Positions 58,091 to 58,260 of a stretch of 64,000 nucleotides of DNA are shown here, piece by piece; position 1 is the stretch's first letter; the number at the start of each line of letters is the position of its first letter. The position numbers were made by a program, and so were the translations under genes. Source of the stretch: a virus (taxonomy: Duplodnaviria; Heunggongvirae; Uroviricota; Caudoviricetes); the IMG/VR virus record IMGVR_UViG_3300010388_000318, positions 14,190 to 78,189 of that record; one strand, written 5' to 3'. The notes under the pieces were generated by a model that worked only from the letters and a program-made list of their open reading frames with translations, was not told the origin of the DNA and searched no databases.

Positions 58091-58260
58091 ACTTGTTACG
58101 CTATTACTGTCACGTTTACTTCGGGTGGAGTCGAACCACCAGTTTTTCCTGTGAACCCACACCACTCACGGACTCGAACCGTCTTCCGGAACCTAACCTA
58201 CCAATACTTTCAACTTTCAATGTTTGCAACCATAGGTCACAGTAATAGCGTAACAAGTCT
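58091..58260 (-). ncRNA. structured RNA element: 24-bp terminal inverted repeat enclosing two T-loop-like hairpins
   Basis: acttgttacgctattactgtcacg (58091-58114) is the reverse complement of 58237-58260. Interior contains GGTGG-TTCGACT-CCACC and ACGG-TTCGAGT-CCGT on the minus strand, but no complete cloverleaf was found. Confidence 0.4.

Follow-up and report, generated by a model that had tools for sequence, protein, structure and literature searches.

Phage tRNA arrays are usually read as tRNA genes plus small open reading frames (ORFs). The tRNA cluster of phage T4 also holds the non-tRNA RNAs rnaC and rnaD, whose stability and processing are documented; to our knowledge, the question of their function, now half a century old, has never been answered. 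Near the 3' end of T4 rnaC lies a canonical T-arm (CCGGG-UUCGAAU-CCCGG), and the RNA has a multi-branched tRNA-like fold closed by its own ends. Stalks cut by RNase III surround functional RNAs in other settings, as seen in the 16S and 23S rRNA stems of rRNA operons and at the early sites of phage T7, and a perfect RNA duplex of at least 22 bp satisfies the substrate requirement of bacterial RNase III. Phages can also encode YrlA, another tRNA-like RNA without a decoding role; a stem formed by its 5' and 3' ends stands in place of the anticodon stem, its domains follow the order T-arm, acceptor-like hairpin, D-arm, and its 5' strand bears the motif GNCGAAN0-1G (Chen et al. 2014, PMC4201824). 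GOLLD RNA (RF02032) is a large tRNA-associated phage RNA of unknown function (PMC12286853). Finally, the PeSL of T4-like genomes combine a short G+C stem-loop terminator with a sigma-70-type early promoter and are linked to modular shuffling (Arbiol et al. 2010; Comeau et al. 2014, PMC4122927).

Here, we describe an element (E1) located in the tRNA array of the window, that is, the whole stretch of 64,000 nt that was analysed. Judging from its predicted proteins, the window comes from a distant, uncultured T4-like myovirus. A Pfam scan covering 40 window ORFs (most, not all, of the larger ones) matched the T4-type baseplate and replication proteins gp5, gp6, gp8, gp53, gp32, and gp59, as well as an RNA ligase, Alt-like ADP-ribosyltransferases, and a TET-associated glycosyltransferase. 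ARAGORN called 18 RNA genes, 17 tRNAs and 1 tmRNA, all of them on the minus strand, where nearly all of the ORFs also lie. E1 occupies part of a 289-nt spacer without an ORF between tRNA-Lys(CUU) and tRNA-Glu(CUC); in the transcript sense it is 113 nt downstream of the former and directly upstream of the latter, and a small ORF with its own Shine-Dalgarno sequence starts 5 nt beyond the CCA of tRNA-Glu(CUC). A Logan contig (L006) was identical across E1. The features of the region are listed below.

58476-58504, minus strand: sigma-70-like promoter match, TTGACA-17-GAAAAT, upstream of tRNA-Lys(CUU) (consensus match only)
58374-58450, minus strand: tRNA-Lys(CUU), upstream neighbour with the same transcript direction (ARAGORN, Rfam)
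58261-58373, minus strand: remaining spacer between tRNA-Lys(CUU) and E1, with two small hairpins seen by eye
58089-58260, minus strand: E1, whole element, 172 nt, a predicted stalk closing a multi-branched tRNA-like interior (fold and match to covariance model R1)
58236-58260, minus strand: 5' strand of the stalk (P1), RNA sense AGACUUGUUACGCUAUUACUGU-G-AC (inverted repeat)
58196-58237, minus strand: hairpin P2, ACCUAU (58232-58237) with GUAGGU (58196-58201) (minimum free energy [MFE] fold and covariation)
58218-58235, minus strand: alternative short form of P2, CUAUG-GUUGCAAA-CAUUG
58213-58231, minus strand: conserved motif of the P2 loop region, GGUUGCAAACAUUGAAAGU (all family members)
58168-58182, minus strand: hairpin T1, ACGG-UUCGAGU-CCGU, 4 bp, in D-arm position, genome-specific (pattern search)
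58153-58167, minus strand: hairpin in anticodon-arm position, GAGU-GGUGUGG-GUUC, 7-nt loop without U33 (ARAGORN at 80% threshold)
58124-58140, minus strand: hairpin T2, GGUGG-UUCGACU-CCACC, 13 nt ahead of the 3' stalk strand, representing the family's conserved T-arm (pattern and homologues)
58089-58113, minus strand: 3' strand of the stalk (P1), GU-G-ACAGUAAUAGCGUAACAAGUCU, ending 4 nt ahead of tRNA-Glu(CUC) (inverted repeat)
58008-58084, minus strand: tRNA-Glu(CUC), beginning 4 nt past the stalk (ARAGORN, Rfam)

We infer that E1 is transcribed together with the flanking tRNAs, since they share a strand, no intrinsic terminator was found on the minus strand between tRNA-Lys and tRNA-Glu (58085 to 58373 scanned), and a promoter-like site is present at 58504 to 58476. 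This site is a candidate start of the transcript containing E1; promoter-like matches in the region were not more numerous than in shuffled sequences. E1 was also considered as an intrinsic terminator itself and was ruled out, as the stalk has no trailing U-run; the sole terminator-like site, the complement of T2 on the plus strand, occurs at chance frequency. The rest of the spacer (58261 to 58373) had no blastn match in any related locus.

The inverted repeat had been described in the earlier note as a 24-bp perfect repeat immediately after a tRNA, with its arms 122 nt apart. The repeat is real, its measured gap is 122 nt, and it ends 4 nt from tRNA-Glu(CUC). The 24-mer itself (ACTTGTTACGCTATTACTGTCACG), however, is not exactly repeated, as its inner ..GTCACG faces GGTCAC.. 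and not CGTGAC. The arms (58089 to 58113 and 58236 to 58260) measure 25 nt each and are 96% complementary; the perfect part comprises 22 bp (AGACTTGTTACGCTATTACTGT), begins 2 nt farther out than the 24-mer, and is followed by one G.G mismatch (RNA sense) and then 2 pairs. Allowing up to 3 mismatches, the 22-mer was found in the window at these two sites only, with 0.00 expected (100 shuffles). The 181-nt stretch on the minus strand folded with -67.6 kcal/mol (z = -6.4), and the stalk pairs had probabilities of at least 0.94 (pairs 2 to 21) or about 0.72 (terminal pairs 1 and 22); in these models, stalk formation is thermodynamically dominant. If transcribed, the predicted stalk would provide the uninterrupted duplex of at least 20 bp (about two helical turns) expected of an RNase III stalk, and with a stem of at least 22 bp the reading of E1 as an RNase III substrate is structurally plausible.

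The enclosed sequence was proposed to be a structured, tRNA-related RNA rather than a tRNA gene, and this holds: no tRNA match was obtained, and the homologues covary (see below). Rfam 15, including tRNA, YrlA, and GOLLD, gave zero matches for E1 at E ≤ 10, and the tRNA model (RF00005; gathering threshold of 29 bits) found nothing in 58060 to 58380 even at E ≤ 10. With default settings, ARAGORN made no call between 58084 and 58374; at an 80% threshold it returned two mutually overlapping sub-threshold folds, one spanning 58193 to 58116. Their acceptors contain 3 G-U or 2 mismatched pairs and their loops are UUGAAGA and GGUGUGG; the second lacks U33, and neither fold has a CCA. The combination expected of a tRNA, with a 7-bp acceptor contiguous with the T-stem, a 7-nt anticodon loop with U33, and a CCA end that is encoded or addable, is absent from E1. 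A permuted or split tRNA, also suggested at first, finds no matching acceptor halves here, the sub-threshold overlapping ARAGORN calls being all that was obtained.

The two T-arm-like hairpins claimed in the earlier note were both found on the minus strand (58124 to 58140 and 58168 to 58182). Both resemble the T-arm of a tRNA (5-bp stem, 7-nt loop UUCRANY, and G53-C61 closure), T2 with 5 bp and T1, (G)ACGG, with 4 bp. A search for orphan T-arm hairpins (G-TTCGANT-C with a stem of at least 4 bp, outside annotated tRNA genes) identified three in the window compared with 0.07 expected per 64 kb, a number reached by 0 of 300 simulated sequences; all three are located in tRNA-array spacers on the tRNA strand. 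In the thermodynamic ensemble, T1 had a pair probability of 0.15 to 0.16. The pair probability of T2 in the window copy was 0.004, and the MFE structure uses an alternative pairing that consumes T2; in the same structure, the hairpin at 58153 to 58167 is opposed by a longer, imperfect pairing that involves the T2 region. A fold of the window copy with both T-arms lies 4.5 kcal/mol above the MFE. The T-arm equivalent to T2 is present in the MFE structures of both homologues and absent from that of the window copy. Two origins for these hairpins were considered and rejected. T1 is not a paralogue of the orphan T-arm of another element of the window (E2), as their alignment score of 23 equals the score against ordinary tRNAs; and T1 and T2 do not derive recently from a particular phage tRNA, as no tRNA 3' half exceeded generic T-arm similarity.

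Homologues of E1 were located through relatives reached via a neighbouring protein, and then with a shorter conserved arm pattern in IMG/VR. Homologue A (L013:1626-1792) lies directly upstream of tRNA-Met, in the same AAGUYUUAAU-tRNA context as the window copy, and is identical in L012 and in L020/L021; L020/L021 and L001 stem from one IMG/VR contig. Homologue B (L018:8234-8402) lies just after tRNA-Leu(UAA) and is identical, as the reverse complement, in L019; its phage is more distant and shares little with the window clade beyond pieces of the tRNA array. Both homologues have the same arms, the motif GGUUGCAAACRUURAAAG, and a T-arm-like hairpin 8 to 13 nt ahead of the 3' arm, and every member is oriented like its neighbouring tRNAs. 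A covariance model (R1) built from A and B, with the window sequence left out, matched the window at 58084 to 58262 on the minus strand with 72.5 bits (E of about 1e-16); the plus strand scored 35.4 bits. E1 is a real feature and belongs to a small, previously undescribed family of stalked tRNA-like RNAs.

The family is rare, with three distinct sequences, because exhaustive pattern scans of IMG/VR returned the same three contigs each time and related loci totalling about 290 kb yielded no additional member with the covariance model. The exact arm and double-T-loop patterns had zero matches in IMG/VR; among INPHARED isolate phages none has the element, with blastn similarity limited to tRNAs; and a metagenome scan with the neighbouring 171-aa protein yielded two short contigs only, both without the element. 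The more distant DUF7678-linked contigs (L025 to L030) are not tRNA arrays and hold no family member. Two matches in bacterial metagenome-assembled genomes were rejected, as they lack the arms and about four chance matches were expected (19 specified bases, 596 Gb). A motif match in L024 is probably a coincidence: there, the 19-mer opens the coding sequence (MVANVES...) of a DUF932-like gene, chance alone would have given two to three matches, no DUF932-like gene lies near E1, and the corresponding E1 frame stops after 7 codons.

Next, the anatomy of the family was compared across the three lineages. The stalk is invariant at 21 of 25 positions; the window has U-A at pair 22 where the two homologues have C-G, pair 25 shows C-G versus U-A, and both changes are compensatory. 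Such conservation of sequence goes far beyond the purely structural need of RNase III and hints at a sequence-specific partner or a DNA-level role. P2 starts right past the stalk, and its loop contains the invariant motif GGUUGCAAAC-R-UU-R-AAAG, followed in the window copy by a 7-nt duplication (UGAAAGU). The distal 6-bp helix of P2 (ACCUAU/GUAGGU, CUUUAC/GUAAGG, and GUCUAC/GUAGAU) is paired in 18 of 18 cells while 4 of its 6 positions vary, and the proximal form shows 2 compensatory positions and a conserved U.U. The T-arms read GGUGG-UUCGACU-CCACC in the window, AUGGG-U/UUCGAAG/U-CCCAU in L013, and UUUGG-UUCAAAU-CCAAA in L018; all 15 stem cells are Watson-Crick pairs, and 3 of 5 positions covary. 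Covariation in related genomes, by which the earlier note had proposed to judge the RNA, is thus seen in the T-arm and a second helix, in three distinct sequences only. Since the set holds only these three, from which the helices were also partly defined, the covariation statistics are weak. All helix substitutions preserve pairing, with seven G-U cells and zero A-C cells overall, an asymmetry that argues for folding as RNA of the sense (tRNA-sense) strand and against a cruciform in DNA or a fold of antisense RNA.

The interior is more variable than this frame. Across lineages the arms are about 91 to 100% identical, the interiors of A and B about 77%, and the window interior is largely different. 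A and B have a central domain in common, made up of a 6-bp helix, a symmetric 7x7 internal loop (GACRAUA/GACRAUA), and a small hairpin at the apex; the window carries T1 and the hairpin with the 7-nt loop in its place, both unconserved, and T1 has no counterpart in either homologue. In the window copy, the frame (stalk, P2, and T-arm) and the branch count are retained, whereas the central sequences are not. Homologue B forms, in its MFE structure, a clean five-way junction that includes the T-arm (z = -7.65). Within a helix of 4 bp (GUAG/CUAC), the predicted order is 2-nt linker, hairpin in D-position, 1-nt linker, long arm in anticodon position, 4-nt "variable loop" (AGGU), and T-arm, which is the connectivity of a tRNA. 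R1 positions 47 to 142 and 21 to 149 aligned weakly to true tRNAs (10 to 13 bits). Given this connectivity and the weak alignment, the best description of the family is a tRNA-derived cloverleaf carried by a long stalk; according to the models, the homologues fold into a cloverleaf-like multi-branch junction on a stalk of 23 to 25 bp.

These comparisons bear on whether E1 has a function at all. The element might be debris, the remnants of decayed tRNA genes in a fast-turnover array that persist as a harmless hairpin, as suggested by pseudo-tRNA folds that are only sub-threshold and overlapping, by a central domain and a T1 found in the window alone, by the absence of E1 from the nearest relatives at the Lys/Glu slot, and by a likeness of T1 to other T-arms that does not exceed its likeness to any tRNA. 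We regard this as very unlikely. The arms, the P2 motif, and the position of the T-arm are conserved in three lineages, one of which shares little else beyond tRNAs, every helix substitution keeps pairing, and a neutral 22-bp perfect repeat would decay fast.

To place E1 within its locus, the spacer between tRNA-Lys(CUU) and tRNA-Glu(CUC) was compared among contigs in which the neighbouring DUF7678 gene is 84 to 91% identical. The slot is hypervariable among these relatives, with the following contents.

L008 and L011: 4 to 5 nt
L001: an unrelated 133 nt
L010 and L014: a 67-aa ORF
L009: a 112-aa ORF
Window: E1

E1 is absent from this slot in the closest relatives (5 nt separate the two tRNAs in L008), which indicates that it is dispensable for the maturation of tRNA-Lys and tRNA-Glu. 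Members of the family occupy different slots: Lys(CUU)/Glu(CUC) in the window, a site directly before tRNA-Met in L013, and one following tRNA-Leu(UAA) in L018. The 5' arm is present twice in L013, its second copy flanking an inserted ORF of 32 aa.

The arrays harbor further elements. E2 of the window likewise has two 5' arms and one 3' arm, and in four phages the 3' strand of E2-type stalks ends 2 to 4 nt before tRNA-Met. Homing-endonuclease genes (GIY-YIG, HNH, and Endonuclease_7) are located in these arrays, which also contain a second conserved non-decoding tRNA-like RNA with a 4- to 6-nt "anticodon" loop and no CCA. GOLLD (RF02032) was found with 172 to 190 bits in four related contigs, a few hundred nucleotides upstream of E1- or E2-type stalks; it had no Rfam match in the window between 50000 and 64000, and a copy is predicted to lie just past coordinate 64000.

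The variable position of the family raises the possibility that E1 acts at the DNA level, as a recombination substrate or mobile cassette, with the arms serving as recombination substrates or terminal repeats and the tRNA-like interior as a passenger derived from tRNA gene fragments. Differing slots between phages, the unrelated contents of the Lys/Glu slot in relatives (5 nt, an unrelated 133 nt, or 67-aa and 112-aa ORFs), arms that stay about 91 to 100% identical while the interiors diverge, the duplicated 5' arm beside the 32-aa ORF in L013 with its parallel in the layout of E2, and the homing-endonuclease genes all speak for such a cassette. Nevertheless, a single copy was seen in the window and in each related contig, the three insertion points show no target-site duplication, no transposase is associated, and the orientation is always that of the tRNAs. 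The G-U/A-C asymmetry and the T-arm covariation are RNA-level signals, and mobility would leave the conserved interior helices unaccounted for. We therefore consider this explanation unlikely on its own. The near-invariance of the stalk, together with the variable position and the duplicated 5' arm of L013, means that a role at the DNA level, in recombination or as a mobile cassette, is still the main rival. Its conceptual precedent is the PeSL, whose defining promoter and terminator E1 lacks. A mobile RNA gene would be compatible with our preferred explanation, so that mobility may be an additional property.

Our preferred explanation, which we put forward tentatively, is that E1 belongs to a small family of tRNA-array RNAs of uncultured T4-like phages in which an RNase III-type stalk releases a stable tRNA-like RNA. 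E1 would be transcribed from the minus strand along with its flanking tRNAs, and its ends would pair into a stalk of 22 to 25 bp. The stalk would close an interior resembling an over-sized cloverleaf, with a conserved-loop hairpin, a variable central domain, and a T-arm-like hairpin beside the 3' strand; in this genome, the central domain may have been swapped for a segment carrying a second T-arm-like hairpin. The stalk would then most likely serve as a processing site for a double-strand-specific (RNase III-type) enzyme. Cleavage there would separate the part of the precursor with tRNA-Lys from that with tRNA-Glu and the downstream ORF, leave a short tRNA-Glu leader for RNase P, and free a compact tRNA-like RNA of about 125 to 150 nt, which might accumulate stably like the species 1 RNA (rnaC) of T4. 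The repeat, the hairpins, the family membership, the covariation, the strand bias, and the variable genomic position are shown by the analysis; co-transcription, RNase III cleavage, stability, and any activity of the released RNA are inferred. The conserved T-loop points to a tRNA-binding factor that would recognise this RNA.

The closeness of the stalk to tRNA-Glu could instead reflect regulation in cis, the stalk sequestering the tRNA-Glu 5' leader to position -5 and controlling RNase P access or the downstream small ORF. In keeping with this, the 3' stalk strand ends 2 to 4 nt before a tRNA in the window, in L013, and in the E2-type stalks of four phages, and the downstream ORF starts only 5 nt past the tRNA CCA. 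The L018 element, however, has no tRNA directly after it, the conserved T-arm and P2 loop would be left unexplained, no ligand-binding or antiterminator-like alternative fold was found, and no U-run follows the stalk. Regulation in cis is thus a highly improbable account of E1.

The T-arm also invites a different role, in which E1 acts in trans as a tRNA mimic, a decoy or tether for a tRNA-recognising factor, and the stalk is mainly a handle. Candidate partners would be a host anticodon nuclease or other tRNA-targeting defence, TruB/TrmA, RNase P, or a Rsr/Ro60-like protein, as for YrlA. The canonical T-loop hairpin is conserved with a covarying stem, the combination of a stalk with a tRNA-like domain resembles YrlA (PMC4201824), the same arrays hold the second conserved non-decoding tRNA-like RNA, and the phage encodes RNA repair and translation rescue functions (RNA ligase, tmRNA, and an ArfA-like peptide). 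These observations are offset by the absence of an Rfam YrlA match at E ≤ 10 in the window and homologues, of a TROVE/Rsr protein among the 40 window ORFs scanned (most, not all, of the larger ORFs), and of GNCGAAN0-1G from the 5' stalk strand. The domain order differs from the T-AS-D permutation of YrlA, and there is no free acceptor end, no CCA, and no anticodon-like loop with U33. We consider such action in trans doubtful and distinctly improbable. A bolder proposal is that the family represents a new class of non-decoding tRNA mimics, a cloverleaf-like module on a sequence-conserved stalk, which would form a tRNA-machinery tool-kit with the anticodon-less RNA and GOLLD; this, too, strikes us as rather improbable. 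If it were true, E1 might act as a decoy or sponge that occupies host defence nucleases directed at tRNAs, or address a partner that binds or mimics the tRNA elbow; the T-loops of the window copy might act jointly, and the stalk could be the docking site of a specific protein.

With E1, this uncultured T4-like clade adds conserved non-decoding tRNA-like RNAs to what a phage tRNA array may contain. As an independent family with the location and tRNA-like flavour of the T4 C and D RNAs, E1 and its homologues suggest a general phenomenon. They may provide a second system with a structural handle (stalk, T-arm, and conserved loop) on processing, modification, and partners, and E1 could be used as a marker for the shuffling of tRNA-array modules between phages.

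Compared with known systems, several likenesses are only partial. Terminal repeats are present as in MITE-like transposons, but no common duplication was found and each related contig has one element, so that this comparison failed. With PeSL, E1 shares the character of conserved non-coding repeats in hyperplastic regions bordering swapped modules, its duplicated arms flanking cargo; unlike PeSL, its arms have no promoter or terminator in or beside them, measure 23 to 25 nt, and enclose a conserved structured interior. GOLLD occupies the same tRNA-array neighbourhood, and E1 is separate from it, much smaller, and without similarity. YrlA is alike in having a long end-formed stem and a tRNA-like domain with a T-arm. 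In E1, by contrast, the stalk is an extension of the acceptor-like end and the domains follow the normal tRNA order, with the T-arm last before the 3' strand; the Rfam model, an Rsr neighbour (40 window ORFs), a GNCGAA motif on AGACUUGUUACGCUAUUACUGU, and the domain order all speak against membership. RNase III stalks around functional RNAs are alike in that pairing of the flanks gives a duplex of at least 20 bp in a multi-gene precursor with tRNAs; they differ in that E1 has a stalk of unusually high sequence conservation, encloses a small RNA, and is cleaved only presumptively.

The best analogy is the one with the T4 C and D RNAs, which the earlier note had listed among its options. Like rnaC and rnaD, E1 is a non-tRNA RNA of about 120 to 170 nt on the tRNA strand of a T4-type tRNA cluster, and its T-arm recalls the canonical one of rnaC; stability and processing are documented for the T4 RNAs and proposed for E1. 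The analogy does not extend to homology, since R1, run with filters off on T4 positions 69500 to 74000, had no match on rnaC or rnaD, its best score being 13 bits on tRNA genes. The closing helix is about 5 bp in rnaC and a near-perfect stalk of 22 to 25 bp in E1, and the GGUUGCAAAC motif of the E1 family and the two T-arms of the window copy set them apart from rnaC. Overall, by analogy, E1 most closely resembles a T4 rnaC combined with a processing stalk of the rRNA-operon type.

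In addition to the stalked tRNA-like element E1, the tRNA array holds a second stalked element (E2), and other long spacers contain stems as well.

63629-63864, minus strand: E2, a stalked element between a tRNA-like gene (63865-63937) on one side and tRNA-Met (63552-63628) on the other
63187-63386 and 61920-62127, minus strand: long-range stems in long tRNA-array spacers, found by eye

The arms of E2 consist of three related copies, two on the 5' side (63843-63861 and 63741-63765) and one on the 3' side (63631-63655), and a tRNA-like insert amid them carries an orphan T-arm, CACG-UUCGAGU-CGUG (63788-63802). 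The arm pair ACUUUUUAGAUGAACACA / UGUGUUCAUCUAAACAGUUUA is kept upstream of tRNA-Met in the related contigs L008, L009 and L013, with a compensatory change (G-C vs A-U) in at least one pair. Unlike the conserved arms, the sequence enclosed by them is different in each phage. As judged by eye, the stems of the other two spacers enclose 70-100 nt, with examples being UUGUGAUGUGU...ACACAUCACA, UUGGGUCU...AGACCCAA and UUAAUUAGUAGU...ACUACUAAUUAG. Since these long spacers also hold long-range stems, stalk-closed spacer domains look like a general feature of the window's tRNA array.

The gene flanking E2 was called only as "tRNA-???" by ARAGORN, and its counterparts in the related contigs lie next to a known large RNA.

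63865-63937, minus strand: tRNA-like gene, with counterparts at L008:5238-5308 and L013:1303-1374
L008:4572-5034, L013:672-1105, L009:3888-4366 and L021:6859-7338: GOLLD RNA (RF02032), 172-190 bits

The tRNA-like gene is conserved between the window and these two contigs, and its acceptor, D and T arms are all normal. The "anticodon" stem covaries and is topped by a loop of just 4-6 nt, and CCA is not encoded; the gene looks like a non-decoding tRNA mimic. In the four contigs, GOLLD lies upstream of the block formed by the tRNA-like gene and tRNA-Met, with the "tRNA-???" counterpart a short way downstream of it, and most of these GOLLD copies hold an embedded tRNA. By eye, window positions 63938-64000 resemble the L008 sequence 3' of GOLLD. 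A GOLLD gene probably lies just past coordinate 64000, with the window stopping 100-200 nt short of it.

Endonuclease genes and small ORFs also lie in or beside the arrays.

L008:1-605, L012:1856-2356 and L009:8063-8509: homing-endonuclease-type genes (SegE-like GIY-YIG, HNH, Endonuclease_7)
57684-57730 and 57986-58031: direct repeat of tRNA 3' ends plus downstream sequence

The endonuclease genes lie within the tRNA arrays of these relatives or adjoin them, and are probably the reason why tRNAs, small ORFs and stalked elements are gained and lost in a mosaic fashion. In the RNA sense, the direct repeat reads ...CCACCA-UUUUUU-GGAG-(5-9 nt)-AUG; therefore, small membrane-protein ORFs, each preceded by a separate Shine-Dalgarno sequence, begin a few nucleotides past the CCA of tRNA-Glu(CUC) and tRNA-Lys(UUU). 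A homologue of the ORF at 57791-58003 occupies the slot between tRNA-Lys(CUU) and tRNA-Glu(CUC) in L010 and L014.

Two sequence likenesses of E1 were also evaluated.

L024:1623-1650 (IMGVR_UViG_3300038314_001026): match of the E1-family motif at the start of a DUF932-like gene
58124-58149, plus strand (antisense): terminator-like site, the complement of T2 (the conserved one of E1's two T-arm-like hairpins) followed by AGTTTTTCC

Together with the sequence to its left, the family motif (CUAUGGUUGCAAACGUUGAAAGUAUGG) differs little from the stretch around the start codon of the DUF932-like gene, MVANVESMAYAGKVPWHGLG..., and E1 of the window, when read as codons, gives AUG GUU GCA AAC AUU GAA AGU UGA (MVANIES-stop). 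The match in L024 reaches past the searched pattern itself. The likeness is probably due to chance, because 2-3 chance hits are expected for the pattern. Terminator-like sites in the region around 58124-58149 occur at chance level.

Finally, two unusual or missed tRNAs and two candidate ribosome-rescue genes were identified.

62128-62199, minus strand: tRNA (33.6 bits), found by Rfam only and missed by ARAGORN
40310-40387, minus strand: tRNA with anticodon CUA (amber suppressor), "tRNA-Pyl" according to ARAGORN
58739-59254, minus strand: 171-aa ORF with an ArfA-like N-terminus (motif KGKGSYRR)
38513-38903, minus strand: tmRNA (ARAGORN, asterisk-marked), tag peptide AANDNSSVEFALAA

The first tRNA has UCC in its anticodon loop and matches in position the tRNA-Gly(UCC) of L002 and L009. 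ArfA is an alternative ribosome-rescue factor, and the match of the 171-aa ORF to it (E = 3e-5) falls narrowly below the Pfam cut-off. In the relatives L009, L010, L014, L015 and one L008-like contig, a 46-aa ArfA-like ORF stands by itself ahead of a 110-aa ORF; in L001 and L002, the corresponding position carries an in-frame TAA. The window has a Tyr codon where the relatives stop, so that the ArfA-like and downstream ORFs are fused; the in-frame stops of the relatives at this gene are TAA, not TAG. Together, the ArfA-like ORF and the tmRNA gene suggest that this phage encodes ribosome-rescue functions.
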